From Minisyncoccota bacterium (lineage in GTDB: Bacteria; Patescibacteriota; Minisyncoccia; Phycocordibacterales; Phycocordibacteraceae): 64,000 bases of DNA. The stretch's first letter is position 1. Every line of letters starts with the position of its first letter. The translations under genes and the position numbers were made by a program. The DNA lies in NCBI GenBank assembly GCA_036405415.1, contig DASWXP010000002.1:556450-620449 (forward strand). The letters run 5' to 3'. Of this stretch, positions 13,102-51,940 are shown piece by piece. The notes beneath the pieces were generated by a model, which was not told the origin of the DNA, did not search any database, and saw only the letters and a list, made by a program, of their open reading frames with translations.

Positions 13102-13133
13102 AGTGTGATATCGTGCGAAAAGCATACCACTTC

Positions 13134-24109: not shown

Positions 24110-24122
24110 GGATAAGATAGGG

Positions 24123-24149
24123 AAAAGGCCGGTTTGAAACCGGCCTTTT
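24123..24149 (+). terminator. rho-independent terminator
   Basis: aaaaggccgg-tttgaaa-ccggcctttt. Confidence 0.6.
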
Positions 24150-24188
24150 CTGTTATCAGAACTTCCTTCCAAGTACTGTTTATAAGCT

Positions 24189-25103
24189 ATGTTAACCGAG
24201 GCAAGAAAGCTATATAGTATATGCATGGATGAGATAACTATTGGTGACAAGGTCTATATCTCGTCAAAGCGCGCCGCAAAAATTACTGGTTATGCGAAGG
24301 ACTATGTCGGCCAGCTTTGTCGTGAGGGCAGGGTTGAAGCGCGACTGGTAGGCCGAAACTGGTATGTCCTGGAATCTGCGATCCGTGAGCACCGCTTCGG
24401 TTCTGCGCATGAATCCAGCAATGTAGCAGCTAGCTCTGAGGAGGTTCCTGTTGAGGATAGGGCAAATACGTGGCAGAAACCTACATATATACCTGAAAAT
24501 CCTTTGATGGTGCCAGAACTTGCCCAGAAGCCTGTTCAAGAGCCAGTTTCAAGCCCTGCGATAGCTGATATGCAGTCTGCTTGGAGGGAGTGGTTCTCCG
24601 ATAAGAAGACAGTTGATGCGCTTCCTGACGGATCTGAAGACTTTAAGGACGAATATCTCCCTGTAGTGCTTGAAAGTGCCGAGCCTGTAGAGATAAGAGA
24701 AGAGGAAACCGTAACCCTGCAAAGAATAGAGTCTCCAGTTGAGGCAAAAAAGCCTGAAAGCAGTGAGGAAAGTGAGGTTGAGATTCACAAATCCTACGCC
24801 TCTAGGGAGACGGGAGAGCTGGTACCGCATACCAGCATTCCTGTAGTCGACCTAACACCTAAGAGCCAGGGTAGAAGCAGGCCTGTAAAGCCACTAAATC
24901 CGGCAGCAACCGCTAAAAAACCTTCGGGCAGTGGTGTAACCCGAGCGCTCCTGATTGTTCTCGCTTCGGTAGCAGTGCTAGTAGCTGTTGTAGGAACCGG
25001 TAATGCCGACAGATACATTGGCACTACTAGTACCGATTCAGGACCACAGAAAGCGATTCTGGACTTTCTCGGAGGAAAGAGTAGCTATAAAAGTACCCTA
25101 TAA
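24189..25103 (+). CDS. bitopic membrane protein with N-terminal excisionase-type HTH (HTH_17-like), acidic linker, C-terminal TM helix and short exposed tail
   Basis: KVYISSKRAAKITGYAKDYVGQLCREGRVEARLVGRNWYV matches the HTH_17 pattern and the N-terminus of the giant ORF at 25688; TM ALLIVLASVAVLVAVVG near C-terminus; alternative start ATG 24225. Confidence 0.5.
   Translation: MLTEARKLYSICMDEITIGDKVYISSKRAAKITGYAKDYVGQLCREGRVEARLVGRNWYVLESAIREHRFGSAHESSNVAASSEEVPVEDRANTWQKPTYIPENPLMVPELAQKPVQEPVSSPAIADMQSAWREWFSDKKTVDALPDGSEDFKDEYLPVVLESAEPVEIREEETVTLQRIESPVEAKKPESSEESEVEIHKSYASRETGELVPHTSIPVVDLTPKSQGRSRPVKPLNPAATAKKPSGSGVTRALLIVLASVAVLVAVVGTGNADRYIGTTSTDSGPQKAILDFLGGKSSYKSTL
24213..24218 (+). 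promoter_or_regulatory. -10-like hexamer TATAGT 6 nt upstream of ATG 24225
   Basis: gctatatagtatatgc-ATG. Confidence 0.3.
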
Positions 25104-25147
25104 AATATAGATATCTCGTCTCGTATCAAAGAGATTAGATAAAACGT

Positions 25148-25183
25148 ATAGAACACCCTCAACTTATGTTGAGGGTGTTCTAT
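25148..25183 (+). repeat. perfect 16-bp inverted repeat, 4-nt loop
   Basis: atagaacaccctcaac-ttat-gttgagggtgttctat. Confidence 0.45.
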
Positions 25184-25310
25184 CAATTTAGATCAGCTAA
25201 ATAAAGGCTAACCACTAGCAAATATGTACAAAAAGTCATTCTGTAGGAATTAATACTCCGTAGACGGTCTCTTAATAACTGGCAAAAAATTAGAGATTAA
25301 GAGCAATTAA

Positions 25311-25348
25311 CGAGCCCTACATACCTATATATAGATATGTAGGGCTCG
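25311..25348 (+). repeat. 38-bp near-perfect palindrome centred on CTATATATAG
   Basis: cgagccctacata-c-ctatatatag-a-tatgtagggctcg; candidate operator. Confidence 0.45.
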
Positions 25349-25687
25349 TACAAATTAAACTTCTGCGCGCAATTACTAATAAATACTTAGTTAGTCCGAA
25401 TAACCGATACGCTCCTATATATAATTGTCTACTTACACACGAAACTAGTTCTGGTAGGAATTTTGTATCCCTTCTGTTGCAAGGGAGTTGAATCTAAGGG
25501 TGGTAATTCTCTTGGATTTGAGTTTAGTGTCTATGCTGCGATGAATTTTTTCGTAATCAGTAGTAATGGATCTTGTTGGCAATTTTTTTCATGATGAGTG
25601 CCTGAAGAATATCCACAAAGAAACATACTAATTAAAAGAAATATCAAGGTAAACTGTAGTTAATTCGGATATCCGACCTACTGCACC

Positions 25688-31600: not shown

Positions 31601-34600
31601 GGACGCACCTGGGACATCAATCCGTTCCGAAACGGCGTGAGCAATGCCGGATTCGAGATTTACGATGTCACCGCAGGAGCGAGCCGCATTGCGATTGACG
31701 CGTCAGGGAACGTAGGTATCGGCACTACATCTCCTTCTGCGAAGCTTGATGTGTACGGGAACGCAATCCTTTCATCGGCAGGCTCTACCCTCAGTTTCGT
31801 TAAGAGCGGCGCAGGAGAGACGCCTGCAATCCTCTTTACGCACTCGACGAATGCCGGCGGCTCCCGCATAGTCTCGAGCGGCTCGAACGCGCAGGCGCTG
31901 ATCATCGATCTTGATCAAGATGCAACCTCAAATTTCGATGCATTCAGCATCAGGGCGAACAATACGAGCACGCGATTCCACATTGATAATGCGGGGAATG
32001 TCGGTATCGGCACCACATCTCCATTCGCCAAGCTTCATGTATATGGCGGCGCATCAGGAGTTACTACGCCTTCTGCTACCGCAGACGATTTCGTTGTTGA
32101 AGGCAGCTCGACGAGCCAGAACGGCTTTTCGCTCCTCGGTCCCGACAGCGCGTACGCTTACCAAGTATTCGGTTCTCCCTCAGACAGCTTTGGCGCGTTC
32201 TCGCGGTGGAACTTTAATAATAAGCTTTTTGAAATAGGAACCGCAGATGACACCGGTGCCGCAGACCTTGCCTTCGTGACCGGAAACTCTTCCGAGAAAA
32301 TGCGCATTCTTGATAATGGGAATGTCGGTATCGGCACAACCACGCCAGGGCAGCTGCTCCATGTATATGGCGGAACGAACCCGGCTATCCGCGTTACCGG
32401 AAGCGGCAACACGAGCGCGTACATGGACATTGCAACCGATGGAACCGGCACGGCTCAGACGCGATACATAACAGGGAATACGGCACGGTGGGCCGTAGGT
32501 GTCGACCCGGCAGCGAATAACAATTTCGTGTTCGCGAATAGCTCCGCTGTTACGAGCGGTCAAAGGATGGTGCTTACGACTTCTGGAAATCTCGGTATCG
32601 GCACTGTCGCGCCGCAGACGGCACTTTCTTTCGCGACAACGTCTGCCGCATCCGGCATAACGCTCTATCAGACAGCTGACGAGACGACGAATTACGCGCG
32701 GGGACGCATGTACTACAACGGAAGCGTGTTTACGCTTCGCACGGAAAAGGCAGGATCAGGAGCCGATACGCCGCTCAGTATCTACCCATCAAACGGCATC
32801 GCGAATATCTACTTCTCAACATTAGGCACAGATGGAAATACCGGCTTCGTGCAGATCGGCGCTGCCAATAACACACAGAACCGCATCAGCGTGCATCTCG
32901 GTGTCGGCTCGCACGGCGCTTCTGTAGGAACGCAGACACAGGTCGCTATCCAGCCTACGATTGCGCAGGCTGGAACTGCGAACTACATTGCGCTCTCCAT
33001 CAAGCCGACCGAATCATCGCTCGGATCCGGAAGCAGCTATCTGTTCCAGGCGGGGACCGCAGCCAATCCTGGGATGTTTAACATCACGAATGCTGGAAAC
33101 GTGGGTATTGGAAACTCGAATCCTGGCTCGCTTCTGAATGTTTCTACCGATACGGTCGGCGCAGCAGCTTTCATGGTCAATACTGTAACGGGGGGCCAGG
33201 CACGATGGCAGATTACAGCGGCAGGTTCGCCAACAACCTCGCGCTTCATAATGTCTGCGCGAGACAGCTCGAACAACACTGCTGTGTCCATCGATCCAAC
33301 GGGAACAACCTATTTCAATACTGGAGGCAATTTCGGTATTGGCACTTCCAGCCCGTCACGCAAGCTTACGGTTGAAGGCGACGCATCTGTCTTGTTCCGC
33401 CTCGATCGAACCACGACGGTTAACAGCTATAATACGATTCAATTCAACAGCCCTTGGACAGGTGGAAGCTACACAGCACAGATAGGAACGAAGGCAGAAA
33501 GTACGTATGCCAATAGCTACACGTACATCTCGGCTGATAATACGAACATTCACCTCGCGGTAACCACTGCGGGTAACGTGGGCATCGGCACCGTCAGTCC
33601 AACCGACAAGCTTGCGGTGCTCGGAGACACGAATGGATACATAAACGCTCGCGTACGCAATGATAATGCCGGATCTTCAGCGTATGCGATGATCGGCATC
33701 AATGCTTCAGGCAACTCCTGGGGCATGCGCATGGGGTCTGCAGCAAACAACAGCAACAGGCTTGATTTCGTCTCAGACGCCTTCGGTACGCCTGTAGAAA
33801 GGTTGAGCATCACGACAGCAGGAAACGTCGGTATAGGTACCACGACTCCTACCGCACTGTTCCAGGTAGGAAGCGCGACTCAACGCGGCTTCAAAGTGTA
33901 TGGAAATAATAGTCCTTATGGGACGGTGCTCGCCGGTGATGCTGGTGGTTGGGCGTTTGGGTATAATTTTGAAGGTAATGCAGGAGCAGCTCTCGGTGGA
34001 TTCGGAGCGTTAGGGAACTCAAATAGCCTGGACAGTTACTATATCGGTACGTTCGCGAATCAGAGGATGACTATCCTTAGCGGGGGTAATGTCGGTATCG
34101 GGACTACAAGCCCGTACGCTGGACTCACGATTGCCCGCGGAGGCGGTACTGCAGCATTTGCCGACACAATCCTTTCGCTAAACAGCTCATCGAATGTTGA
34201 GCGATTCAGATTCTCCGGAGACGGTTCGATGCAGTGGGGAACAGGTGCGGCAAACGGCATCCTTTCTTGGGATACAAATCTCGCGATAGTGGGGGGAAGC
34301 GCAGGGAACGCCCTTTCTCTACGTGCGAACAATGCAGACGTTGTCCGCATAACAACTGCAGGCAACGTCGGCATCGGCAACTCGGCGCCAACCACACCAC
34401 TTGATACGCAGGGCATAATCACGACGCGCTCCGCGGCAGCGGATACGCCGGGCGCGCCAACCGAAAGCATTCGCATGTCGCTTACGGGATATTCGCCAAC
34501 AGACAGATATAGGAATTCGATATTCAACTCGGTATCGACCATCCCCGCTTCTTCGGTAATGCAGTTCAGGGTTAATAATGGTGATACGACGCAGGCGACG

Positions 34601-37600
34601 GTAATGACGCTGCTGGGCAATGGAAACGTAGGCGTCGGCATCACGAATCCAAGCTACCGATTCACCGTTCAGGATACGACGACAGACGGTATCGCAGGAC
34701 GATTCTCTCAGTCAGGAACGGGCACGCCCTTTGGTGTCTACTCGTCAGCAACAGGCGCGGGAACGCAGAACGTTGCCGGCTACTTCCAGACAAGCGGCGC
34801 AACTACGAATATCGGCGTAAGTGCTGACGTTGCGTCAGGCGCGAACAACTACGCCTTCTACGCAGCCAATACTGCAAAATCGTACTTCGCAGGCAACGTC
34901 GGCATCGGCGTTACGAGTCCCGCAAGCCAACTCACGGTTGGAAAGACAACCGGAGGTGTCATATCGATCACGACCGCAGGAACCGCGGGTACCACCGCCT
35001 CGCCGCTTCCGGCGACCCTCAACTTCGTTGGGTACGGAGAAGTCACCAAGGGCGCTATCAGCGTGCAGGACCGAACCGGAAACGTCCTCGGAGGATGGAT
35101 GAAGTTCCAGACCGCCGACAGCTCTGACGTGCTTCAGGACCGAGTAATGATAGATAGGGCGGGCAACTTCGGTATCAATACGATGACGCCGCAGGCAACG
35201 CTCGTGGTGGGCGGCGCGCAGAGCGGCAATGCAGGCCTCGAGATCGTTCCAGGCTCCGGCATCGTCGCGCAGTCGTACAACCGAAACACAAGCGCGTATG
35301 CAAGCCTCAGCTTCGACGCGTCAGCAATCGCATTCCGCCCGAGCGGCTCGACCATGCTTACGGTCAACGGCGCAGGAGCTGCGGTGGGAACCGCGAGCGT
35401 CTCTGACCGCTTCGTCGTGGAGGTCGCGACCAATAAGCGTCTCGGTGTAGAAGAGATCACGAGCTCGGCAATCAGCGACTTCTCGACGGGCGGCGCGAGC
35501 ATCCAGTTCTCGCGCGCGAGCGATGGGGCAGATAACCTGACCGGTATATTCACCTACAACAATTCCGGAAACACGAGCATTAACCTCGCCATGGCAGCAC
35601 GCAGCGACTTGGTGTTCGCAGCTGGCGGAGGCGCAGCGTACACGAACTCTCCAGAGCGCATGCGCATAACGAGTTCCGGTAACGTCGGTATCGCTACGTC
35701 CACTCCTGGCCAGGCGCTCACGGTTGCAGGAAGCACGTACATAACCGGAGGTCTTGGCATCGGTAACGTCAACACGACTGCAGGCTCGCTCCTCACCACC
35801 TCGCACATAACGATGGGAACGCTCTCGCAGTTCTCTGCTGCAGGCGGCTCAGCACTCACGTCGCCAGCAAACGGCGTATGGCGCGTAACCAACAACGCAG
35901 GAACCGACTTCAGTCGCTTCCAGTTCGGCGGAGGCACTTCAGCATTCCCGTCTATCAAGCGCAATGGCGCAGGTCTCGACTTCCGCCTGGCGGATGATTC
36001 CGGATATGCGACCACGACCCATCAGGGCGGTCTCTTCCTTGGAAATGTCGGTGTGGGAACCACGACGCCAGGGTACAGGCTTAGTGTTGGAGGCGATATC
36101 AATTTTACCGGCAGCCTTTATCAGAACGGCGTCGCGTTCGGCGGCTCGTCACAGTGGACGACGAGCGGAAGTAACATCTACTACAACACTGGCAATGTCT
36201 CGATTGGTACGACCACAACGTCATCCACAACGAAGCTCTTCGTGGTAGGTCCGAACACTGGTACTGTCGCATTCTCGGTTGGCGATAGGTTTAGGGTTGA
36301 TGGCCTAGGAAATCTTTTCTGGGGCCAAACCGCAGGAACTGTTAGCGGCATTCTTTCATCTGCTGCGAATGGTGACGTAACGATGGGTTCTCAGTTTGCT
36401 AATAGAGACTTGTACATTCAGACAAGTGCATTTAACGCTATCCAAATCTACGGAGGTGTTACCGGCACGCTAGGAAACATCAAGCTTGGCGCATATGGAG
36501 CGGGTACACTCCAGACAGACGGTGCCGGAAACGTCACTGCTTCATCGGATGAGCGCCTCAAGGATATTCAAGGCAATTTCTCGAGAGGGCTTGCAGATCT
36601 CATGGCCATAAATCCGATTAATTACCGATGGAACGCAGCTTCAGGGTTCGATACTGAAGGCATGTACAGCGGATTCTCAGCACAGAACGTCAAAGATTCT
36701 ATCCCTGAAGCGGTAGGAACAGATCCGAGGGGATATCTGACGTTGTCGGATCGACCAATACTTGCTGCTACCGTGAACGCAGTGAAGGAGCTCAATGTCC
36801 GCACGCTTTCACTCGCACCAGCGGCTCAGAACCAGGAAGCACACTCGCTCGCGGTATCCGCAGACGCGTCCGTAGCAGGCCTCCTCACGGTCTCCGGCAC
36901 CGGCTCATTCCTCGGTACCGTAGAAGCAGCGTCATTCCTGACGACTGCAGACGCAGGACTTCCTGAGAACGTGCTCACGGCAGGTCAGGCAGACCTCTAC
37001 AAGATGGCGCGCTTCGCCATCTCAGAGATCAAGGACCTCAAGGAGCGCACGGACCTCCTTGCGGTACGCATCGACGACATCGAGACCCGTGTTGCCGCGC
37101 TCGAGGCACAGGGACAGAGCGCCTCCTCGACCATGGCCGGGGCCGTTGGCCTCACGGCAAGTTCCCTCAAGAGCGCGCTCGAATCCTTCGGTATCTTCAT
37201 CGAGAACGGCATCGCGCAGTTCAATACGCTCGTATTCCGACAGCTCGCGGTTGCCAAGGACGAAGCGGGCGACTCTTCCGCAGGCAGCGTAACCATCCTC
37301 GCGGGCAACACCGTGACGCAGGTGCAGAACCCGTACGTGCTCCCGACCTCAAAGGTATTCGTCACCTTCACGAGCCCGGTGGTTGGCGCGTGGTACATCA
37401 GCCACAAGGAAGCAGGCAGCTTCCGCGTGACGCTCGCCGAGTCCCAGCCTTCTGACGTCTCCTTCGACTACTTCATCCTCCAGACCGAAGGCCAGCTCGC
37501 AAGCCCGGGCGCCGCAGGACCGAGTCAGCAGAACCAGGTCCCGACGCCGGCACCGCAGCCGTTCCAGCCGGTGTTCCCGCAGGACGGGGGAACCACGACG

Positions 37601-37981
37601 CCAGCAACCTCAGGCGACACCACGCCGCCATCCATCTCGCTTAACGGAAGCGCCGCTATCGAAGTAGGGCAGGGAGGCTCTTGGAACGATCAGGGCGCAA
37701 CAGCTTCAGACGACGTTGACGGCGACCTCTCGAGCCATATTCAGGTATCAGGCTCCGTTGATACGGCAACGCCTGGCCTCTACACCGTCACGTACTCCGT
37801 ATCGGACGCTGCGGGTAATCAGGCGAACGTATCACGCATCGTGACGGTTACTGCAGCGCCACAGGCACCAGCACCAGCTCCAGCTCCGGCTCCGGTGCCT
37901 ACACCGACTCCGGAACCAGCTCCGGCTCCAGCACCTGAACCTGCTCCAGCTCCGGAACCAGCACCGGCACCCTCCGTATAG
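25688..37981 (+). CDS. giant (4097-aa) membrane-anchored surface fibre protein: N-terminal HTH_17-like module, TM helix, T/N-rich region, ~25 GNVGIGTTSP repeats, Peptidase_S74-like intramolecular chaperone domain, coiled coil, DUF5011 Ig-like domain, Pro/Ala/Glu tail
   Basis: Single uninterrupted ORF; only available start is TTG 25688 (in-frame TAA at 25661); domain calls from motif recognition (see findings). Confidence 0.7.
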   Translation: MNKLLQEKLISTKDASALSGYTSDYLSRLCREGKIDGTQVGRTWLVDRDSLEKFIATQIDRKAELAESLAREREREYRLSNTKSISMTRSMERGTRDAVNSVVAAFAKARLPHGMPAFSGTAVAMALTAIVLAGSAAAAGSGVVARMGAGLLAAALEARVQVLEGAHSLAIDSLAHRETLAETAREDLALDENAFANVQSIKLEEVSSALTLAMRDVHAPVAPTQIAYERAEEISATYASDTTFAESAKAIGSAVQNPNVTASVVADGLMRTYASVGALALRDIETTLSAHEDAVTAAGEGLFALSTGMRDGARTLPLAVGSAFIRASDASLSLYEQGVYGFAALSQDVPHTLVAAALDTGSMVGGLTQLAVTAAPRAYEDGMISFSEETSQLGMRISEGSFALGANSHGLVSGLLIAEDRAIAGFMRSASDTVALAPAGTGSASAQQGIDLVPSAITNEVLGIVGNIALSIENLEGDMLTASPLASLNLDAFVPGFLKNVTAVLARAFDSALHGILGPLAGFFGAGEEAGIAIIPGDGANIPGPGDRGSSEASIVYNGPVTIIRNEYPSVTYGGVPQAYVDERFDFLRRTLYNRIEDVADDDDVGITTLDGQTGNDMLLNNPTIVGGTITDSELDVATSTVTGSFTVNGNASITGDLTATNATTTNFYATAGSFASATIDVLTAPSATIANLIVTNSTTTNATSTNLYVSNLAGLVATITDAFFTNVTASLATLTNAVVTTLTATNATLTNATSTNATTTGSLALTYVTPSRLLSVDAFGKVVATNLASWVTGSANQITVTDTGAGGIQLSLPSVLVFGTSSPTTLAGNGATSTFGGGIYAPRIEAGEYIAGPYVLATSTTATSAFSGNIAIGRNATIGTSASDSLVVNATVGSNFVPSLNNAYDLGSAANNWRRIYVDEVVANNLSAASTSIAGTVSSDFSINSDNASNDTEDMSLTFNRGVASPNAILAWNSTTKRFEFNMPVFSANGIFTNATTSNLAVTNFTLGGSTFTSLLGSGLSNVGGALTADLGALDDTFFRQDGNSFGATAILGTNDNNNLAFETNGSTKMTLLANGYLGIGTTSPTTPLYVSSDFPRITIDRNTNNSGNSLILFNQESVLKAGIGIAGGTNGVIAGSVSGDLVARTQGGNMYFSNDGTGATSQLSIINNGNVGIGTVTPSTLLHLHTAGGGDAPRLKFTNGTTGTTATDGAFVGISNTSQLDVWNFESNSLRFATANTLRMVIDATGNVGVGTSSPAFAAISARYLAVDGSSLGADIPGAVGAGGNITGTTNNIGQFAFYNNALSTAEKRNATIVGTNDGALNSGLIRFFTANAGTLGERMRITSTGNIGIGTTTPDRMLSVAGTGLFTGLTTFLSGFDIGGSTFTSLLGSGLTNVGGALTLDRTGDWTGTFDGQEGSYYLARANHTGTQLASTISDFASTARGLFSSTATGLTYTSGTGVFSLTSGYEIPLTASTTNWNTFYNTPSTRITAGSGLAWAGNTLSADLNTLDDTFFRQDGNSFGTTATLGTNDSNALALETNGSTRLTITSSGNVGIGTSSPTHALSVNGNAYIQGGIGSGIEPASVPGILLLNRTGGDPAIVFYENGSQVGQLRGDGTNNKIQFSNALATRFPFTLDLTTENIGIGTTTPEGRLTLVASSTGDSLVIASSTGARQLTVNTNGSLIFSSSGQSYKQVTGVDEDGPSIFLNRTLGNEATANEHGIIDRNTFTRATKAYNSYDSQPYFTGTNDYDHYAGFQARGAMNSTGTLSRYHGFASTPNVAAGTVTNLYGYSVYDAVGAGTVTNNYGLHVQNLTKGTNNFAIYTDGTTKSYFGGNVGIGTTSPASLLHVSSNTSTSFTVERDSVTDPGKIQLITESAENSIYSRTNTTAAKNLRFVIGTAERMRIDTLGNVGIGTTSPSRLLSVGDDGTYSAYFSGRVGIGTTSPTRGLVLTSATTVNAALQLAYTASGGRTWDINPFRNGVSNAGFEIYDVTAGASRIAIDASGNVGIGTTSPSAKLDVYGNAILSSAGSTLSFVKSGAGETPAILFTHSTNAGGSRIVSSGSNAQALIIDLDQDATSNFDAFSIRANNTSTRFHIDNAGNVGIGTTSPFAKLHVYGGASGVTTPSATADDFVVEGSSTSQNGFSLLGPDSAYAYQVFGSPSDSFGAFSRWNFNNKLFEIGTADDTGAADLAFVTGNSSEKMRILDNGNVGIGTTTPGQLLHVYGGTNPAIRVTGSGNTSAYMDIATDGTGTAQTRYITGNTARWAVGVDPAANNNFVFANSSAVTSGQRMVLTTSGNLGIGTVAPQTALSFATTSAASGITLYQTADETTNYARGRMYYNGSVFTLRTEKAGSGADTPLSIYPSNGIANIYFSTLGTDGNTGFVQIGAANNTQNRISVHLGVGSHGASVGTQTQVAIQPTIAQAGTANYIALSIKPTESSLGSGSSYLFQAGTAANPGMFNITNAGNVGIGNSNPGSLLNVSTDTVGAAAFMVNTVTGGQARWQITAAGSPTTSRFIMSARDSSNNTAVSIDPTGTTYFNTGGNFGIGTSSPSRKLTVEGDASVLFRLDRTTTVNSYNTIQFNSPWTGGSYTAQIGTKAESTYANSYTYISADNTNIHLAVTTAGNVGIGTVSPTDKLAVLGDTNGYINARVRNDNAGSSAYAMIGINASGNSWGMRMGSAANNSNRLDFVSDAFGTPVERLSITTAGNVGIGTTTPTALFQVGSATQRGFKVYGNNSPYGTVLAGDAGGWAFGYNFEGNAGAALGGFGALGNSNSLDSYYIGTFANQRMTILSGGNVGIGTTSPYAGLTIARGGGTAAFADTILSLNSSSNVERFRFSGDGSMQWGTGAANGILSWDTNLAIVGGSAGNALSLRANNADVVRITTAGNVGIGNSAPTTPLDTQGIITTRSAAADTPGAPTESIRMSLTGYSPTDRYRNSIFNSVSTIPASSVMQFRVNNGDTTQATVMTLLGNGNVGVGITNPSYRFTVQDTTTDGIAGRFSQSGTGTPFGVYSSATGAGTQNVAGYFQTSGATTNIGVSADVASGANNYAFYAANTAKSYFAGNVGIGVTSPASQLTVGKTTGGVISITTAGTAGTTASPLPATLNFVGYGEVTKGAISVQDRTGNVLGGWMKFQTADSSDVLQDRVMIDRAGNFGINTMTPQATLVVGGAQSGNAGLEIVPGSGIVAQSYNRNTSAYASLSFDASAIAFRPSGSTMLTVNGAGAAVGTASVSDRFVVEVATNKRLGVEEITSSAISDFSTGGASIQFSRASDGADNLTGIFTYNNSGNTSINLAMAARSDLVFAAGGGAAYTNSPERMRITSSGNVGIATSTPGQALTVAGSTYITGGLGIGNVNTTAGSLLTTSHITMGTLSQFSAAGGSALTSPANGVWRVTNNAGTDFSRFQFGGGTSAFPSIKRNGAGLDFRLADDSGYATTTHQGGLFLGNVGVGTTTPGYRLSVGGDINFTGSLYQNGVAFGGSSQWTTSGSNIYYNTGNVSIGTTTTSSTTKLFVVGPNTGTVAFSVGDRFRVDGLGNLFWGQTAGTVSGILSSAANGDVTMGSQFANRDLYIQTSAFNAIQIYGGVTGTLGNIKLGAYGAGTLQTDGAGNVTASSDERLKDIQGNFSRGLADLMAINPINYRWNAASGFDTEGMYSGFSAQNVKDSIPEAVGTDPRGYLTLSDRPILAATVNAVKELNVRTLSLAPAAQNQEAHSLAVSADASVAGLLTVSGTGSFLGTVEAASFLTTADAGLPENVLTAGQADLYKMARFAISEIKDLKERTDLLAVRIDDIETRVAALEAQGQSASSTMAGAVGLTASSLKSALESFGIFIENGIAQFNTLVFRQLAVAKDEAGDSSAGSVTILAGNTVTQVQNPYVLPTSKVFVTFTSPVVGAWYISHKEAGSFRVTLAESQPSDVSFDYFILQTEGQLASPGAAGPSQQNQVPTPAPQPFQPVFPQDGGTTTPATSGDTTPPSISLNGSAAIEVGQGGSWNDQGATASDDVDGDLSSHIQVSGSVDTATPGLYTVTYSVSDAAGNQANVSRIVTVTAAPQAPAPAPAPAPVPTPTPEPAPAPAPEPAPAPEPAPAPSV
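28900..36250 (+). repeat. about 25 degenerate coding repeats (~240-300 nt each) each containing a G-N-[VIL]-G-[IV]-G-T-T-[ST]-P motif
   Basis: Motif recurrences read directly from translation (e.g. GNVGIGTTSPASLLHV, GNVGIGTTSPSRLLSV, GNVGIGTTSPFAKLHV). Confidence 0.7.
36542..36810 (+). other. Peptidase_S74-like intramolecular chaperone/autoprotease domain (tail-fibre/endosialidase C-terminal chaperone type)
   Basis: ASSDERLKDIQGNF...LMAINPINYRW...GFSAQNVKDSIPEAV matches the conserved SDxRLK Ser-Lys dyad region of S74 domains. Confidence 0.6.
37624..37852 (+). other. DUF5011-type bacterial Ig-like domain
   Basis: PPSISLNGSAAIEVGQGGSWNDQGATASDDVDGDLSSHIQVSGSVDTATPGLYTVTYSVSDAAGNQANVSRIVTV. 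Confidence 0.55.
37856..37978 (+). repeat. Pro/Ala/Glu-rich C-terminal tail encoded by short tandem ccagct/ccggct/ccggaa units
   Basis: APQAPAPAPAPAPVPTPTPEPAPAPAPEPAPAPEPAPAPSV. Confidence 0.5.
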
Positions 37982-39045: not shown

Positions 39046-39063
39046 AACTCACACATTGACGCA

Positions 39064-39090
39064 GATACCACGCGCTATGCGCGTGGTATC
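39064..39090 (+). terminator. 12-bp perfect stem hairpin with 3-nt loop, followed by U-rich tcttattat
   Basis: gataccacgcgc-tat-gcgcgtggtatc. Confidence 0.5.
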
Positions 39091-39100
39091 GTCTTATTAT

Positions 39101-39490
39101 ATGGAACCCGTATCTCAAGCCGACCCTACCGAGCCTCGCACGAGAAGAGTCTTTATCATAATCTCCACCGTAGCGGTGCTCGCTGTCATAGTCGCAGGAG
39201 CGGCATACATGGCCTTCAATCCAAAAGAGAAGGAGGTCACGCTCATACGGAACTTCGCGTGTGCGGACGGTTCGCGGTATCTCGTGATCGACAATACGGA
39301 CAAGATTACCGTGTCCGGTCAGGAATTCGCCCGCGCCGGAGAGTCAGTGCCAGCTCGATACGAAAACGGCACGGATATAGCATTCGTGCTTAGCGAAGAC
39401 ACACTCGCAGTCGTTAACAATAAGACTGAGGAGTCCATCGCGACCTGCACAGCCCAGGCGGCTGAAGTTGATTTCGTAAAGGAGCAATAA
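39101..39490 (+). CDS. hypothetical single-pass membrane protein
   Basis: TM helix VFIIISTVAVLAVIVAGAAYMAF; start ATG 39101 chosen to sit after the terminator hairpin. Confidence 0.35.
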   Translation: MEPVSQADPTEPRTRRVFIIISTVAVLAVIVAGAAYMAFNPKEKEVTLIRNFACADGSRYLVIDNTDKITVSGQEFARAGESVPARYENGTDIAFVLSEDTLAVVNNKTEESIATCTAQAAEVDFVKEQ

Positions 39491-39498
39491 CGGAGCAT

Positions 39499-40992
39499 AT
39501 GAAAACCACACTATTCGCAAGAATCATCTCAGCTTCCTCAGCGCTTGCTCTGGCGACTCTCATTTTCTTCATGGCAGCTACGAATGCGCTTGCCTGCGGG
39601 ATGACCTGTAATGGGGACTACTTCGCTGCTGGTACGCCCGGAGCAGTTGCAGAGACGGGCAGGTACGACACGGCGGTGTGCATGGGGTCTGTCTCGATAG
39701 AAGAATGTCCTGGCGGAACCGATTATGGAGGCGGGGGCGGAGGTGGTGGTGGCGGAGGCGGCAGCTATGTCGACCTTACCGCAAGCGACATAACACCGGT
39801 CATCACGACTAGCGGCGAAGCACAGACATACTACGCAACCGTCTATAACGGCCCGACGATCGCAGGGAACACTACGACCCTGTTCCAGCGGACCGAGAAT
39901 CCCGGTGACGTGAGCGCGCCAGTGGTGAGTATGGTCGCGACAGCGAGCATGAACCCATACTCAGCGCGCACCTTGTCGGCAAGCTATACCCGTACGGGCG
40001 GTTCGTTCTACATGCGCGCATGCGCAGACGCGAACAATCAGATCGCCGAGATCAACGAGAATAACAACTGCGGTCCGTGGACGCTCATAACCGTCATGCC
40101 TTCTGCGCAGCAGGCGGATCTCGTCGCAGGAAGCGTGAGCGTCTCGAACGCGGTCCAAGGCGCGGCTGCGACCCTGAGCGCGAGCGCGTCGAATATCGGT
40201 GCTGGCGCGTCCGATAGCTTCCCGCTCTTGTTCCAGATCTCAGAGACCGGAGCACGCACTAACAGCGCGTACCTCGGGGGACTCGGTTCCGGCGCTTCTG
40301 CGGGCGGTACCGGCTCGTACAAGTTCCCGGATTTCGGGGTGTACAACGTGCGAGCCTGCGCGAACTTCGACACGGCCTGGAATCCGGTCGCGGCCGAATC
40401 GAGCACCGCGAACAACTGCGGTCCGTGGACCGAGGTCACGGTCTCGCCCGTGGTAACGCCGGCGCTCTCGTGCTCCGTATCGGCGACATCGGTAGCGGTT
40501 GGCGGATCGGTCACCTATAGCGCGAACCCGTCAGGAGGCGCCTCTGGTCCCTACACCTGGACCGCGTCTGACGGCGGGAGCTACGGAACCGGCTCGACCG
40601 CATCCCGATCCTTCAGCGCTCCCGGCACGTACGCGATGAACGTCGATACGTCCTCGACCGCGGTATCCTACTGCCCGAACGTGAGCGTCGTATCGACCGC
40701 ATGTAGCGCTGCGACAACTGATCTCTCCATAACCGCGACCCCGTCACGCGTGCGTGCGGGACAGACCTCGACCATCTCCTGGACCGCGTCCGGCGTGAAC
40801 GGCGAAGGCGCAAGCTGCACCGTCTCGGGCCCTGGCGTCTCCTGGACCTCAAGCGTAACGGCAGCGCCGCAGTGTTCCGCAGGCGGATCCTCAAGCGCTA
40901 CGATCGCGACCCAGAGCACCTACACCATCACGTGCGCCGGCCAGTCCGAGAGCGTCGTGGTGAACGTGATTCCGCAGATCATCGAGTTCTAG
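39499..40992 (+). CDS. secreted CARDB-domain adhesin-like protein A (Gly12 tract; C-terminal Cys-containing module ending NVIPQIIEF)
   Basis: Signal peptide, NNCGPWT motifs twice, C-terminal ~300 aa paralogous to the protein at 49982..51940. Confidence 0.6.
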   Translation: MKTTLFARIISASSALALATLIFFMAATNALACGMTCNGDYFAAGTPGAVAETGRYDTAVCMGSVSIEECPGGTDYGGGGGGGGGGGGSYVDLTASDITPVITTSGEAQTYYATVYNGPTIAGNTTTLFQRTENPGDVSAPVVSMVATASMNPYSARTLSASYTRTGGSFYMRACADANNQIAEINENNNCGPWTLITVMPSAQQADLVAGSVSVSNAVQGAAATLSASASNIGAGASDSFPLLFQISETGARTNSAYLGGLGSGASAGGTGSYKFPDFGVYNVRACANFDTAWNPVAAESSTANNCGPWTEVTVSPVVTPALSCSVSATSVAVGGSVTYSANPSGGASGPYTWTASDGGSYGTGSTASRSFSAPGTYAMNVDTSSTAVSYCPNVSVVSTACSAATTDLSITATPSRVRAGQTSTISWTASGVNGEGASCTVSGPGVSWTSSVTAAPQCSAGGSSSATIATQSTYTITCAGQSESVVVNVIPQIIEF

Positions 40993-41508: not shown

Positions 41509-42231
41509 ATGGGAATCATAGTCCCGGCCATACTTCCGGTATCGCGCGAGGACCTCGAGCAGAAGCTCGATATTCTTGACGGTGTCTGCGAAGAGGTGCA
41601 GGTAGATATCGTGGACGGCGTCTATGCCGGTCCTGCGACCTGGCCCTATACCCGGGACGCGTCAGAACCGTCACGCATGCTCGCGGATGGGGAATTCCTC
41701 CCGAAAGCCGGTCGCTTCAGGATTGAAATCGATCTCATGAGCGGAGACCCGGAGTCTGTGGCGGGAACCTGGATCGGGCTCGGCGCTGCGCGTCTTACGA
41801 TCCACGCGGAGAGCACGCGGTACCTGCCGCGCTTCCTTGCGAGCACCCGCTCCCTGTACGGGCATGACAAGGAGTTCGAATCCGACCTGCTGTCGCTCGG
41901 CCTTGCTATTGGCGCAGAGACCGACCTCTCGCTGATCGAGCCCTATATCGACAAGATCGATTACGTGCAGTTCATGGGCATCCGTACCATAGGCAGGCAG
42001 GGCGAGCCGTTCGATATGCGCACGATCGCGAAGGTCCGGGCATTCCGGAAGAAGTACCCGAAGACGCCGGTGCAGGTGGACGGAGGCGTGACGCTCAAGA
42101 ACGCCGCAGAGCTCCTTGATGCGGGTGTGGCGCGCCTTGTCGTGGGCTCTGCGATCTGGCGCGCAGAGAATCCACTCGACGCGTATCGCGCGCTCGACGC
42201 CCTCACCGAGCAGCATGGGCTCTATGCATAG
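41509..42231 (+). CDS. rpe: ribulose-phosphate 3-epimerase-like (divergent)
   Basis: IVPAIL N-terminus, VQVDIVDG, later FMGIRTIGRQGEPFD motifs reminiscent of Rpe TIM barrel. Confidence 0.55.
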   Translation: MGIIVPAILPVSREDLEQKLDILDGVCEEVQVDIVDGVYAGPATWPYTRDASEPSRMLADGEFLPKAGRFRIEIDLMSGDPESVAGTWIGLGAARLTIHAESTRYLPRFLASTRSLYGHDKEFESDLLSLGLAIGAETDLSLIEPYIDKIDYVQFMGIRTIGRQGEPFDMRTIAKVRAFRKKYPKTPVQVDGGVTLKNAAELLDAGVARLVVGSAIWRAENPLDAYRALDALTEQHGLYA

Positions 42232-42754
42232 CATCCGCGGATTCACTCTTATCGAGCTTCTCGTAGTGATAGCCATCATCGGCGTGCTCTCGTCGGTAGT
42301 ACTCGCAAGCCTCAGTCAGGCGCGCATCAAAGCACGCGACACGTCCCGGATATCGCAGCTCGCGGAGATCCGGAAAGCGCTCGAGCTCTATTATCTCGAT
42401 AAGGGCTACTATCCGGCATCTAACTGCGGCTGGGACTGCAACGGATACCGCTACAGCTACGACAGCTCATGGAATGCGCTCGCGAGCGACCTTGCTCCGT
42501 ACATGAGTACGTTGCCGCGCGATCCCGTGAATACCGGCTGCACGCCGTGGAGTGCGAATTGCTTCTCATACGCGTACGGGAACGTAGGACGCAGCACCTA
42601 TGCGCCGCAGTACGATCTCACCGCCCAGCTCGAAGACCCCTTGAGCGCGTACCGCTGCACAGCTCGCGGTTACCGGTTCTATTTCAATAATCAGGGCTGG
42701 TGCAGTGCATCTGGGGGATCCTATTCGGATCAGATTTACGAAGCGTCGCCATAA
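42215..42754 (+). CDS. type IV pilin / pseudopilin (prepilin-type N-terminal cleavage-methylation domain)
   Basis: MGSMHSIRG|FTLIELLVVIAIIGVLSSVVLASL class III signal; ATG 42215 overlaps rpe stop. Confidence 0.75.
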   Translation: MGSMHSIRGFTLIELLVVIAIIGVLSSVVLASLSQARIKARDTSRISQLAEIRKALELYYLDKGYYPASNCGWDCNGYRYSYDSSWNALASDLAPYMSTLPRDPVNTGCTPWSANCFSYAYGNVGRSTYAPQYDLTAQLEDPLSAYRCTARGYRFYFNNQGWCSASGGSYSDQIYEASP

Positions 42755-47151: not shown

Positions 47152-47382
47152 ATGGACGTTAAGTTTGATGAGACTTCGTACGCTCCTCGGACGACCCAGG
47201 CTGCGCGTACCTCTGTTATGACGAGCCTCGTTATGAAGGCAGGTCTTGCAAAGGACGAGAAGGAGGCTAACCATGTGTTCTTATGGATAATCGGCCTATG
47301 CCTGCTCATACCCGCCGGCCTTTGGCTCGTTCCAGCACTCATACCCGATCCCGAGGTTCAACCCATAGTCTTGCCGAAATGA
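47152..47382 (+). CDS. hypothetical small membrane protein
   Basis: TM helix FLWIIGLCLLIPAGLWLVPALI; weak. Confidence 0.2.
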   Translation: MDVKFDETSYAPRTTQAARTSVMTSLVMKAGLAKDEKEANHVFLWIIGLCLLIPAGLWLVPALIPDPEVQPIVLPK

Positions 47383-47825
47383 TGAACCACAGCCGCGGCT
47401 TCACCCTCATCGAGCTTCTCGTAGTGATTGCCATCATCGGCGTACTTTCCTCGGTGGTGCTCGCGTCCCTTAATACCGCGCGCACGAAATCTCGCGATGC
47501 TGCACGCGTGGCTACCATGAAGCAGATCCAGAACGCACTCGCGCTGTATCACCTCGACCGTGGATATTATCCTACGATTACGGAGAACGAGTGTGGAGGA
47601 ACAGAAGGATTCACCACGAGCAACAACAATTTCATGCAGTCCCTGGTATCAGGCGGGTATCTGCCTGCGTATCCCATCGATCCAGGGAACCTGAGCTGTG
47701 GTATGCAGTACTACCAGAGCGGCAATAATGCCTACTATCTGTTCTACCGGCTCGAGGCTGGTCCTGTACCGTCTGCTACTGGCTGCAACCAGCCCCCGAC
47801 CTGGTACTGCATAGCCGGTGGTTAG
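47379..47825 (+). CDS. type IV pilin / pseudopilin (second copy)
   Basis: MMNHSRG|FTLIELLVVIAIIGVLSSVVLASL; paralog of 42215..42754. Confidence 0.75.
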   Translation: MMNHSRGFTLIELLVVIAIIGVLSSVVLASLNTARTKSRDAARVATMKQIQNALALYHLDRGYYPTITENECGGTEGFTTSNNNFMQSLVSGGYLPAYPIDPGNLSCGMQYYQSGNNAYYLFYRLEAGPVPSATGCNQPPTWYCIAGG

Positions 47826-48588: not shown

Positions 48589-49920
48589 ATGAAGCGAATC
48601 GTTGTCGTACTTTCCGTGTTCGCGCTCTTGGTCGCCGGTCCCGCCGCGATCCTCGCGCAGGAACTAACTGCGAGCGAGCGCGCCGAGCTCGAGCGGCAGC
48701 TCGCGGACCTCGAGCGCGAGATGCAGAAGACACAGGCTACGATCGACAATCTTTCCGCACAGGGCGCTTCGCTCCAGCGCGATATCGCCATCCTCGACGG
48801 AGAGATCAAGCGCGCGCGCCTCAAGGTGCAGACCGCAGAAGCCGAGATCCGTGCGCTCGCGGCAGGCATCGTGGTGCACACGCGCACCATAGGAACGCTT
48901 AGCGAGAAGATGGTGCGCGAACGGGACTCGCTCGCGCAGATCCTGCGCAAGACCGATGCGATCGACGACTACACGCTCGTCGAAGCGGTGCTTTCAGGCG
49001 CCGAGATCTCTGATTTCTTCAGCGACCTCGATACGTTCGCCTCGATCAAGCAGGCGATGCGCACCTCCTTCGAGGAGCTCCGGGCTACGAAGGCGGAAAC
49101 GCAGGAAGAGCGATCGGGTCTCGAGAGCCAGAAGACCGATCAGGAGATCCTCAGGTCTGCGCTCGTGCTCGCGCAGCGCGAGGTAGAGGCGAAGGAAGCC
49201 GAGAAGAAGAAGCTCCTGGCTGAGACGAAGGGGCAGGAGAGCCTGTACCGCGGCCTCAAGTCCTCGCAGGAACAGACTGCGGCGCAGATCCGCGCGAAAC
49301 TGTTCCCGCTGCGCGATACCTCGGGCATCCAGTTCGGAGATGCGGTGCGCTATGCGCAGACCGCGAGCGCGCGTACCGGAGTGCGCCCGGCGCTCATCCT
49401 CGCGATCCTTTCGCAGGAAAGCGATCTCGGAAAGAACGTAGGACAGTGTCTCATCACGGATCTTGCAACCGGAGACGGAAAGGGCAAGAACACCGGTACG
49501 CCGTTCCCGGGAACCATGAAGGCGCCGCGCGACACGGTTCCGTTCGAGCGTCTCATGAAGGCCGCAGGCCGCGATCCTCTGAATACGCCGGTCTCATGTC
49601 CGCTTCCGGGCGGCTACGGCGGCGCGATGGGTCCGACCCAGTTCATCCCAAGCACCTGGGAGATGTACGAAGGACGCATCAAGGCCGCGCTTGGCGTGTC
49701 TGCGGCAGATCCGTGGAATGCGTCCCATGCGGTTATGGCTACCGCGCTCTATCTCGCTGATGTGGGTGCAGGAGGCGGAACCTATCTCGCGGAGCACACG
49801 GCAGCCGCCAAGTACTACGCAGGAGGGAACTGGGCCTCGAGCGGCCAGGGATACGGCAACAGCGTGATGAGCAAGGCCGCAGCGTTCCAGAAGGACATCG
49901 ACTTCCTCGAGGCGAATTAG
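48589..49920 (+). CDS. secreted coiled-coil protein with C-terminal lytic-transglycosylase-like (SLT_2/MltB-type) domain
   Basis: Signal peptide; ~230 aa heptad-rich region; C-terminal GAMGPTQFIPSTW signature. Confidence 0.6.
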   Translation: MKRIVVVLSVFALLVAGPAAILAQELTASERAELERQLADLEREMQKTQATIDNLSAQGASLQRDIAILDGEIKRARLKVQTAEAEIRALAAGIVVHTRTIGTLSEKMVRERDSLAQILRKTDAIDDYTLVEAVLSGAEISDFFSDLDTFASIKQAMRTSFEELRATKAETQEERSGLESQKTDQEILRSALVLAQREVEAKEAEKKKLLAETKGQESLYRGLKSSQEQTAAQIRAKLFPLRDTSGIQFGDAVRYAQTASARTGVRPALILAILSQESDLGKNVGQCLITDLATGDGKGKNTGTPFPGTMKAPRDTVPFERLMKAAGRDPLNTPVSCPLPGGYGGAMGPTQFIPSTWEMYEGRIKAALGVSAADPWNASHAVMATALYLADVGAGGGTYLAEHTAAAKYYAGGNWASSGQGYGNSVMSKAAAFQKDIDFLEAN

Positions 49921-49981: not shown

Positions 49982-51940
49982 ATGAACGCCACACTCAAGA
50001 CGCTCCTCCTCAGCTTGTTTATCGGTATCGGAATCGCAGGATTCTTCCTTGCGCCCCAGCCCGCGAACGCAGCCGCATGTAATTTCAGCAACACGAACAT
50101 ACGAATCGCGTGGACTCCGAGTTCTCCCTATGACATGCAGGGAGGAACAAGCAGCTACTCCTATTCTCCCGGCACCACGGTAGCGAGATCCTACGGAGAA
50201 CTGAGCCTCAACCCTCAAACACCGAGGAACTGGACGGTGTCGGTGAACGTGACGAATAACGGGGTCACAAAGACATTGAGCACGTCAGAGTGTAACTGGG
50301 CGTATATCAACGGTCCGTGTTACACCCAGACAGGGGATCAGGATATCGGAGGTGCGACCTTCAATATGTTTTTCGAGGTGCAGTCTTATATAAAGGCTGA
50401 GATTACCTGTACGCCATCGCCTGAAGTAACGCCAGACCTTATCGGACAGGTCGGTGGCGCTCGTACCGTACAGGCGGAGCAGCCGGTTACCCTTTATGGA
50501 GCGATCGCGAATAGTGGCGGAAACGCCGGAGCATTCGAGAACATCATCCAGGTATGCGACCAGAGCTGCTTCACGCTTAACCGAATACTCTCAGCGACCA
50601 CGCTGTCGTCACTCGCTGCAGGGAGCTCTGCGGCCATATCCGCAACATTTACACCGGCCGCAACTCCTGGCGTCACGGACTACATGTATCGAGTGTGCGC
50701 GAACACGCGTGTTACTACGAGCAAGGGATCAAGCACCTGGAGCAACCCTGCTACTGAATCCAATTATGCGAACAACTGTAGCGGGTGGCAGTCCCTCACG
50801 ATCCAGCAAGCGCCGGTGCCGCCGACCGCAAACCTGACACTGACACCAGCGTCCATTGCTTACGGGGGCGCATCCATCCTGCAGTGGGGCTCGACGAATG
50901 CCACGTCCTGCACCGGTACCAACTTCTCGACGGGAGGGGCGACTTCGGGAAGTGTGTCCGTAACGGCGACGCAGAACACAACCTACACCGTGACGTGTAC
51001 GGGCGCTGCGGGAAGCGCGTCCGATTCCGAGCTTCTTAGCGTCGGCGCACAGCCGCAGCCAGACCTGGTCGCAGGTACGGTGACTGCGGGAAGCCCGCAG
51101 GCAGGCGTCTCCGCGACACTTTCAGCGGATGTTACCAACGTCGGTCCTGCAACCTCAGGCTCGTTCCCGATCCTCTTCCAAGTGTCCGAGACCGGCGCGC
51201 TCGCGCAAAGCGGGTATCTTGCGGCGCTCGGCTCCGGAGCCTCCCGAAGCGGGTCTGCGTCCTACACGTTCCCTGCGGCCGGAACCTACCAGGTCCGAGC
51301 ATGCGCTAACTACAATACGAGCTGGACAGCAATTACGACTGAGTCGAATTATGCGAACAATTGCGGACCGTGGACTACCATAACCGTTTCTTCTGCGCCG
51401 CAGCCGCCAGCCCTCTCCTGCAGCGTATCGCCAACGTCGGTTGCCCTGGGAGGATCGGTCACGTATAGGGCGAATCCGTCCGGCGGCGCATCAGGTCCCT
51501 ATACCTGGGTTGCAGCAGATGGCGGTAGCTATGGCACGGGCGCAACCGTAACCCGAACCTTCACGGCTTCGGGAACCTACGCCATGAACGTGGATACGTC
51601 CTCGACCGCGAGATCCTACTGTCCGAACGTGACGGTGACGTCGAACGCATGCAGCGGGGCAAGCACGAATCTCACGATAACCGCGACCCCTGAGCGCGTT
51701 CGGGCGGGGCAGTCATCGACCATAACCTGGAACGCTACTGGAGTGAATGGAGAGAGTGCCACCTGCACGGTCTCAGGTCCGGGCATATCCTGGAGCTCTC
51801 CGGTATCCGCAGCGCCGCAGTGTTCCGTAGGTGGCTCAGCATCCGCAACGATTGCCTCTCAGAGCACCTACACCCTCACCTGCGGCGGGGTCTCCGAGAA
51901 CGTCGTGGTGAACGTGATCCCGAAGATTATCGAGTTCTAG
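49982..51940 (+). CDS. secreted CARDB-domain adhesin-like protein B (C-terminal module ending NVIPKIIEF)
   Basis: Signal peptide MNATLKTLLLSLFIGIGIAGFFLAPQPANA; ANNC[SG][GP]W motifs; C-terminal ~300 aa paralogous to 39499..40992. Confidence 0.6.
   Translation: MNATLKTLLLSLFIGIGIAGFFLAPQPANAAACNFSNTNIRIAWTPSSPYDMQGGTSSYSYSPGTTVARSYGELSLNPQTPRNWTVSVNVTNNGVTKTLSTSECNWAYINGPCYTQTGDQDIGGATFNMFFEVQSYIKAEITCTPSPEVTPDLIGQVGGARTVQAEQPVTLYGAIANSGGNAGAFENIIQVCDQSCFTLNRILSATTLSSLAAGSSAAISATFTPAATPGVTDYMYRVCANTRVTTSKGSSTWSNPATESNYANNCSGWQSLTIQQAPVPPTANLTLTPASIAYGGASILQWGSTNATSCTGTNFSTGGATSGSVSVTATQNTTYTVTCTGAAGSASDSELLSVGAQPQPDLVAGTVTAGSPQAGVSATLSADVTNVGPATSGSFPILFQVSETGALAQSGYLAALGSGASRSGSASYTFPAAGTYQVRACANYNTSWTAITTESNYANNCGPWTTITVSSAPQPPALSCSVSPTSVALGGSVTYRANPSGGASGPYTWVAADGGSYGTGATVTRTFTASGTYAMNVDTSSTARSYCPNVTVTSNACSGASTNLTITATPERVRAGQSSTITWNATGVNGESATCTVSGPGISWSSPVSAAPQCSVGGSASATIASQSTYTLTCGGVSENVVVNVIPKIIEF

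Follow-up and report, generated by a model that had tools for sequence, protein, structure and literature searches.

The window examined here, a stretch of 64,000 nucleotides of contig DASWXP010000002.1 (GenBank assembly GCA_036405415.1) from a Minisyncoccota bacterium, is a typical Paceibacteria chromosome segment that carries gap, rpiB, rpe, tkt, pfkB, and fba, along with genes for L25, L31, RF1, SecA, Obg, GatB, PheT, and GyrB. Among these housekeeping genes lie two others, both on the forward strand, that encode the proteins studied here. Protein A (39499..40992) has 497 amino acids (aa), and its gene model is identical in three independent public assemblies, so its stop codon is no artefact. 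Protein B (49982..51940) has 652 aa when read from its ATG; the list of open reading frames (ORFs) from which both genes were taken starts it at TTG 49955. The best explanation is that A and B belong to a large class of multidomain surface proteins, exported by Sec and found throughout Paceibacteria, and they have in common a C-terminal domain (CTD) that ends in a short peptide, the tail, at the free C-terminus.

The initial annotation had described both as secreted CARDB proteins, and this was borne out. Each has a signal-peptide-like N-terminus, with a putative cleavage site, read from the sequence, between A-L-A and C after residue 32 in A and between A-N-A and A in B, and each matches Pfam CARDB (PF07705) over two stretches, at 54.6 bits for A and 50.5 bits for B (cutoff of 22.7). 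In A, the signal peptide is followed by a Cys-rich N-terminus with a Gly12 run, CARDB1, CARDB2, a PKD-like domain, and the CTD with its tail. The order in B is signal peptide, N-domain, CARDB1, a tail-less Ig copy, CARDB2, PKD-like domain, and CTD with tail. The region common to the two proteins begins at CARDB2, which covers aa 205 to 321 of A (40111..40461) and aa 359 to 476 of B (51056..51409). The PKD-like beta-sandwich follows, at aa 322 to 400 of A (40462..40698), where it holds a Cys pair (C325 and C392), and at aa 477 to 555 of B (51410..51646). The CTD occupies aa 401 to 497 of A (40699..40989) and aa 556 to 652 of B (51647..51937); that of A is an Ig-like seven-strand sandwich with four Cys and matches the CTD hidden Markov model (HMM) at E=2e-32 over profile positions 3 to 95. 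The last seven residues form the tail, I-P-Q-I-I-E-F-COOH in A (aa 491 to 497; 40969..40989, then TAG at 40990-40992) and I-P-K-I-I-E-F in B (51917-51937, then TAG at 51938-51940). The internal Ig copy of B (aa 273 to 358; 50798..51055) is of the CTD type and without a tail, and it matches the profile at E=2.3e-5 over positions 7 to 80 only. PKD-like is a descriptive name for a domain predicted by AlphaFold2 to be a beta-sandwich, as its Pfam scores lie under the cutoffs (PKD_4 in A, 18.1 bits against 27; PKD in B, 17.6 and 17.3 bits against 23.5 for PF00801 and 27 for PF18911). The last ~97 aa of A and B had no Pfam or NCBIfam match.

With BLASTP, A 205-497 aligned to B 359-652 with 203 identities in 294 positions (69%), one 1-aa gap, and a composition-adjusted E value of 2e-129, which confirms the colinear C-terminal region of ~300 aa that had been noticed initially. 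Amino acid identity was 56% in CARDB2, 81 to 82% in the PKD-like domain, and 76% in the last domain. The final 170 aa, previously estimated by eye as roughly three-quarters identical, measured 78% at the amino acid level and 77% at the nucleotide level, with a third-codon identity of 56%. Both proteins terminate in ...VVVNVIP[QK]IIEF, and within the window they are the only EF-ending products among 535 stop-to-stop ORFs of at least 60 aa, as well as the only ones with the terminal domain. The N-terminal halves had been called unrelated, which did not wholly hold, since each contains one additional CARDB domain and these are ~35% identical (E ~1e-6). Ser, Thr, Gly, and Ala are abundant in both proteins, and the likeness might in principle be one of chance or low-complexity composition. 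That explanation is refuted by the colinear alignment with its single gap and its E value under composition-based statistics, and again by the codon-level alignment, in which dN/dS is ~0.17 to 0.19 throughout; a family-wide profile with invariant Cys, Pro, and Asn positions also argues against it, and we give it practically no credence. The pair is under purifying selection.

An AlphaFold2 model of A residues 322 to 497, built from a 21-sequence alignment, had a mean predicted local distance difference test (pLDDT) score of 89 and comprised two beta-sandwich domains. The PKD-like part was all-beta (pLDDT ~81 to 93). The strands of the CTD lay at model residues 87 to 169, the final strand stopped at ..VVVNV, and the tail was non-strand, with a pLDDT of ~80 in the last block. 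A Foldseek search against the PDB returned generic tandem Ig-like folds only (Fc receptors, invasin, FnIII-like, Big_2, and S-layer SbsC domains). A C-terminal Phe is also a feature of the beta-signal of outer-membrane beta-barrels, and this candidate was rejected on the same model, which consists of two soluble beta-sandwiches with the tail outside the last strand, and on the Ig-like Foldseek matches.

The CTD proved to be a large, lineage-wide, and uncurated family, found on many architectures and reaching well beyond a two-gene paralogy. A search with the terminal 176 aa first gave five proteins from metagenome-assembled genomes of Patescibacteria/Paceibacterota, each ending in a related motif. 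An exhaustive search of 1.84 billion representatives with the CTD profile then yielded 3014 clusters (at 50% identity) with E<=1e-3, of which 801 had E<=1e-10. Among 158 database proteins examined, V-N-V-I-P-x-F-x-E-F-COOH was the exact end of 116, or 118 of 160 when A and B are included, and in those 118 tail-bearing proteins the motif never occurred internally. The other ~40 were long proteins, mostly with 5 to 18 tandem copies of the domain, and matched the profile only to position ~88 to 91. The initial annotation had singled out an invariant C-terminal IIEF; the invariant element is instead Pro at -6, Glu at -2, and Phe at -1, together with the upstream V-N. In the 118 tails, Pro -6 was present in all, Asn -9 in 115, Phe -1 in 111, and Glu -2 in 107, and position -4 was Phe in 88 and Ile in 18. 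The family consensus is thus I-P-x-F-x-E-F, and the IIEF ending, which A and B alone represent in the window, is a minority variant. The conserved Cys pattern, on the other hand, was upheld across 200 distinct CTDs, with Cys at column 39 in 99% and at column 76 in 100%; columns 5 and 55 hold a further pair in 72 to 75%.

All 122 terminal copies of the domain reached profile position 94 to 95, and only 3 of 502 internal copies reached position 93 or beyond, which indicates that the tail is not required for the fold and is an appendage of copies with a free C-terminus. These counts bear on the simplest alternative, that the tail is purely structural and caps the last Ig domain, at its exposed edge or core, against aggregation or proteolysis with no partner involved, its conservation being a folding constraint. 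The fold is a generic Ig-like sandwich, a tail with a pLDDT of ~80 is not disordered, and in internal copies the capping could be done by the next domain. Yet the tail is missing from 499 of the 502 internal copies, none of ~200 distinct CTDs extends past the terminal Phe, and Glu -2 and Phe -1 are conserved at 94 to 96% in the same set, as strongly as the core Cys. A cap would also leave without explanation the pairing with a membrane propeller gene and the gene fusions described below. We regard a purely structural tail as unlikely.

Full-length carriers of the CTD ranged from ~250 to 1600 aa, with varied N-terminal architectures, and ~65 of 79 had a hydrophobic, signal-peptide-like N-terminus. 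Classical anchors were absent. Among 77 full-length tail-bearing proteins, none had an LPXTG motif, none had a C-terminal hydrophobic helix (a run of at least 15 residues within the last 60 aa), and only one had a lipobox-like motif ([LVI][ASTVI][GAS]C where the signal peptide ends). The N-termini of A and B likewise depart from that pattern, A having Ala at -3 in A-L-A before its Cys and B having Ala in place of the Cys after A-N-A, and they look like signal peptidase I substrates and not like lipoproteins. A conventionally anchored CARDB protein is encoded elsewhere in the window (62708-63475, minus strand); its 255 aa run from an N-terminal transmembrane (TM) helix through a linker rich in Thr and Pro to a single C-terminal CARDB domain, with no CTD.

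The taxonomic range was assessed by running a degenerate DNA pattern for V-N-Phi-Phi-P-x-F-x-E-F-stop on a 185,579-species genome set. It returned 106 stretches, and in 81 of them a CTD HMM match that ran to the stop codon confirmed the find. Nearly every one of these was labeled Paceibacterota, Parcubacteria, Kaiserbacteria, Nomurabacteria, Minisyncoccia, or Patescibacteria, or had a pipeline label ("uncultured Saccharibacteria" or "bacterium"). Two of the confirmed loci, L050 and L083, carry odd labels and are probably mis-binned; the L31/RF1 neighbors of L083 are Paceibacteria-like. Some 19 unconfirmed matches were in unrelated phyla, where ~20 were estimated to arise by chance, and the remaining 6 were Patescibacteria-type loci with the match at the edge of the stretch.

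The position of B on the chromosome is conserved. The slot reads SLT_2, one or more family members, L31, RF1, S2, and EF-Ts, and across ~82 family loci L31 was adjacent in 45 and RF1 in 44. In the window, the upstream flank of this slot is a coiled-coil protein with an SLT_2 lytic-transglycosylase-like domain (48589..49920, plus strand; Pfam SLT_2 4.7e-10). The gene most commonly found immediately upstream of CTD proteins encodes a type II membrane protein of ~320 aa, in which an N-terminal TM helix precedes a TolB-like PD40 beta-propeller. The profile of this propeller family matches TolB structures at 1e-10 to 1e-13, PD40 was found in 8 of 13 members, and the gene lay directly upstream of 24 of the 69 CTD members for which upstream sequence was available. 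Examples are at locus L023 (874-1827 and 4920-5981), L001 (4211-5188 and 6658-7608), L025 (953-1954), L007 (5270-6244, minus strand), and L139 (379-1380). The adjacency recurs in an independent metagenome set, at L139, twice at L133, and at L126, L136, and L131. In two loci, L003 (5069-7036) and L047 (3877-6987), a single uninterrupted ORF encodes the TM helix, propeller, linker, and CTD with tail. The fusions include a linker or additional domains of Ig/CARDB type, and the propeller of L047 is partial; these are possible Rosetta-stone fusions, or possibly assembly artefacts. The propeller family has a conserved C-terminus of its own, ...K-(L/I)-(I/V/L)-P-COOH, and no Pfam family assignment.

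Two other families also occur directly upstream of CTD-tail proteins. One, a secreted family of ~195 aa (..QP(A/S)S(A/T)PP(G/N)GNVSAP(V/I)NVG..), was seen at five loci (L063, 2347-2949; L075, 5014-5634, minus strand; L100, 3545-4159; L091, 2487-3107; L103, 5662-6192), and the other, a family of ~250 aa with a TM helix and TPR-like repeats, was seen at seven. Directly upstream of A in the window is a gene for a small type II membrane protein (39056..39490, plus strand), a 144-aa ORF that is 93 aa in the public assemblies. It was considered as a truncated propeller homolog and rejected, the HMM likeness being limited to the TM helix (12 bits). A homolog of this protein (33% identity, E=5e-11) precedes an A-type member in a metagenome locus, L134 (227-2525 and 8070-11835), in which GAPDH, RpiB, and Rpe form one contiguous block and the pair sits in the B slot, between SLT_2 and L31. 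This arrangement shows that the small membrane protein and the A-type protein form a conserved pair that has been relocated as a unit between two housekeeping slots.

In many loci, two paralogs lie within 8 kb. In 17 two-member loci, CTD identity was 66% within a locus and 39% between loci, the two members were nearest neighbors in 23 of 34 comparisons, and paralogs of one locus have tail variants in common. This pairing is consistent with concerted evolution, or with co-evolution involving a partner specific to the genome. For A and B, dS was ~1.9 in CARDB2, which is saturated, and ~0.85 across the PKD-like domain and CTD. The CARDB2 of B is 68 to 70% identical to CARDB domains of other genomes, compared with 56% to that of A, whereas the nearest relative of its PKD-like domain is that of A, and for its CTD, A and the A ortholog P0026 tie at 76%. 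Taken together, these values indicate a duplication that is old but mosaic, with the terminal ~530 nucleotides of more recent common ancestry. The old duplication with diverged synonymous sites proposed in the initial annotation therefore stands as to age and needs amending as to history, the dS of the CARDB being twice that of the PKD-like domain and CTD. The mosaic pattern reflects either old gene conversion or module exchange, or else co-evolution with a genome-specific partner. A recent conversion event between the two genes was ruled out, with a longest identical nucleotide run of 19 and dS of at least 0.85.

The several paralogs per genome, often in tandem and with matching tails, would also suit a homotypic assembly, in which the tail inserts into a groove of the neighboring subunit in donor-strand style, or the CTDs form a lattice, to build fibers or an S-layer-like coat of mixed members. 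A hydrophobic terminal peptide beyond the last strand would be appropriate for this, and the TM-propeller-CTD fusions could self-associate. There is, however, no sign of an open groove, and the carriers are very heterogeneous in size (~90 to 1600 aa), so we consider such assembly improbable. A link to type IV pili was likewise examined and rejected, as a pilin-like ORF was found in only 3 of 82 family loci. P0004 abuts a PilB ATPase, and A and B are near two type IV pilin genes (FTLIELLVVIAIIGVLSS N-termini; 42116-42754 and 47283-47825, both plus strand) that are interleaved with pentose-phosphate and glycolysis genes; the closeness of these pilin genes to A and B appears incidental.

Among described systems, the CTD and tail would function most like the CTDs of the type IX secretion system (T9SS), type B above all. 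Both are Ig-like beta-sandwiches of ~80 to 100 aa placed at the very C-terminal end of Sec-dependent cargo whose N-terminal architectures are highly diverse. According to PMC9143113, proteins that carry a type B CTD are tethered at the cell surface through association with PorP-like membrane proteins. A similar logic of cargo and membrane anchor may underlie the propeller pairing seen here. PorP-like genes often adjoin their cargo genes. However, none of 52 diverse CTDs searched against Pfam and NCBIfam at E<=10 matched the type A (TIGR04183/PF18962, Por_Secre_tail) or type B (TIGR04131) models, the candidate partner here spans the membrane once, carries a PD40 propeller, and is not an outer-membrane barrel, and the free-end motif differs. 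No T9SS machinery (PorK/L/M/N, SprA, or PorU/V) was found among the genes of the window, and Patescibacteria are not known to have an outer membrane or a T9SS.

The tripartite sorting signals (LPXTG with sortase; PEP-, PGF-, and PEF-CTERM with exosortase or archaeosortase; GlyGly-CTERM with rhombosortase) resemble the tail in being short, conserved C-terminal signatures on many otherwise unrelated secreted proteins of one lineage, with several paralogs per genome. They differ in consisting of a motif, a TM helix, and a basic cluster, whereas the CTD proteins end at the motif. The only match to a CTERM model was a sub-threshold one, of 14.7 bits, between one of the 52 members and the body of NF041538. 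A third likeness is to the recognition of free C-terminal peptides by PDZ domains or beta-propellers. The PDZ domain of DegS senses outer membrane proteins that end in ...Y-x-F-COOH, and the TolB propeller binds partner peptides; here too, a short conserved peptide ends in an aromatic residue with a free carboxylate, and the linked candidate is TolB-like. No linked PDZ protein was found in the loci surveyed, though, and the tail follows a folded Ig domain and not a beta-barrel.

Models of Ig-like repeats, including Big-type repeats, NF058597 (choice-of-anchor Z repeat), and NF038114 ("rightmost," PxKF domain), describe the same general fold, and hundreds of tail-less internal copies, from long repeat proteins, match the CTD profile to position ~88 to 91. 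Their scores against the CTDs, in contrast, were under the cutoffs, and their matches fell in the body or N-terminal half and never in the tail. NF058597 matched one member at 20.3 bits (cutoff of 30), and NF038114 matched 3 of the 52, with a best E value of 0.0012; in one member aligned individually, the latter gave 13.5 bits (cutoff of 35; E=0.068) over CTD residues 12 to 58 and profile positions 11 to 61 of 113, with the tail uncovered. The terminal subfamily has a signature of its own, ATPxRV, GPG, QSTYTxTC, and VNVIPxFxEF. No family was matched consistently by the 52 CTDs, and the literature searched held no description of a CTD-plus-tail module. Membership in the T9SS CTD, CTERM sorting, "rightmost," and choice-of-anchor Z families was thus rejected in every case as sub-threshold or absent. 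Since all sequence-based tests for T9SS, CTERM, and sortase systems failed, the CTD would be of the "C-terminal sorting/anchoring domain" kind and outside the described families.

These comparisons raise the alternative of a cleavable sorting signal, in which a peptidase or transpeptidase reads the free C-terminus, removes the CTD or the tail, and links the passenger covalently to a wall polymer or lipid, as PorU does with type A T9SS CTDs and sortase with LPXTG proteins. A strictly terminal module on Sec-dependent cargo of diverse architecture, with near-invariant end residues and the general layout of a T9SS CTD, is what such a signal would look like. But no membrane-retention helix lies past the motif, and the substrate would therefore have nothing to keep it in place while it is processed; no T9SS model matches the CTD even at E<=10, and no CTERM model does so consistently. 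In addition, no sortase, rhombosortase-like, PDZ protease, or peptidase gene was linked to the family in ~110 loci or in the window. A cleaved signal is in our judgment decidedly unlikely.

The reading we prefer, tentatively and at slightly less than an even chance, is that the CTD and tail act as a surface-retention or docking module that is read through its free C-terminus by a partner in the envelope. The class would consist of proteins with differing N-terminal "business ends" and a common CTD stabilized by one or two disulfides, followed past the last strand (..V-x-V-N-V) by a seven-residue appendage, I-P-x-Phi-x-E-F, that must be the free C-terminus. Signal peptidase I would cut off the signal peptide, leaving an exported protein with no membrane, lipid, or sortase anchor, and the CTD with its free tail would then dock non-covalently on a conserved envelope partner, to be retained or assembled at the surface. 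The best family-wide candidate for that partner is the membrane-anchored TolB-like propeller, because it is often encoded directly upstream of the CTD protein and is sometimes fused to it. For A, the local candidate would be the small type II membrane protein encoded at 39056..39490, with which it is probably co-transcribed. The anchoring, sorting, or partner-binding module suggested in the initial annotation thus has strong comparative support in the terminal position of the motif, its absence from nearly all internal copies of the fold, and the lack of a classical anchor. What the analysis shows is the domain with its tail, their strictly terminal place and their distribution, the lack of classical anchors, the gene pairing, and the fusions; docking, surface retention, and which protein is the partner are what we infer from these.

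Several observations weigh against docking on such a partner. The propeller gene was not found in the window, and B has no upstream partner gene. Upstream genes are heterogeneous across the family, the propeller accounting for only ~35% and the rest being TPR-like, ~195-aa secreted, and ~110-aa TM proteins; this variety in the census rules out one upstream partner common to all. The similarity of CTDs within a locus can be accounted for by nothing more than recent duplication or gene conversion, the DNA-pattern sampling was biased to particular tail variants, and the pLDDT of the tail fits packing in cis, as a structural cap would require. A more specific version of the docking proposal, which we rate as somewhat unlikely, is that the CTD, together with its tail, serves as the cargo tag of a hitherto unrecognized Paceibacteria surface-display system, in which the propeller or, in some cassettes, another small type II membrane protein captures the free peptide. 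Capture might occur by strand or pore insertion of the tail into the propeller, and interchangeable adhesin modules would be tethered to a cell that has no sortase-type anchoring for them. Such a system would be a monoderm analogue of the pairing of type B T9SS CTDs with PorP.

Other features of the window were recorded alongside. A giant ORF (25688-37981, plus strand) encodes 4097 aa with an N-terminal helix-turn-helix (HTH)-like segment (..LCREGKIDG..GRTWLV..), dozens of repeats of the GN(V/I)GIGTTSP type, and a Pro/Ala-rich end; an ERLKDI sequence near its C-terminus recalls the intramolecular chaperone domains of tail fibers. It was considered as a CTD carrier and rejected, the CTD being absent. 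Upstream, a 304-aa protein (24189-25103, plus strand) has the same N-terminal HTH-like motif (..LCREGR..G..W.V) and a C-terminal TM helix, with no Pfam match, and the GC content of 24001-26000 is 0.45, compared with ~0.58 elsewhere. A TrwB/VirD4-like coupling ATPase (760-2472, plus strand) adjoins a secreted protein with Lamin-tail and PKD domains (2276-3592, plus strand), and the two may be what is left of a conjugation or DNA-uptake-type system. A polysaccharide/glycan biosynthesis cluster (5163-17614), followed by MurB, comprises several glycosyltransferases (GT2, GT25, and GT-D), one methyltransferase, a Wzx-like flippase, and an O-antigen-ligase-like Wzy_C protein that has TPR repeats.

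Patescibacteria, also known as the candidate phyla radiation (CPR), are ultrasmall, and PMC11623550 describes their cultivated members as all obligate episymbionts. Their lifestyle hinges on surface proteins. The profile searches establish an uncurated, lineage-wide module of at least 801 clusters at E<=1e-10, with a free-end motif conserved like the core Cys, on carriers with no classical anchor, and gene adjacency and two fusions point to a concrete candidate partner. At minimum, a new domain-family model for annotation is warranted. If the module is indeed a docking tag, it would allow the surface-displayed proteins of Paceibacteria to be listed by a rule based on sequence, the CTD would serve as a pull-down handle for envelope receptors, and the binary interaction could be tested with recombinant proteins, with no culturing of the organisms.

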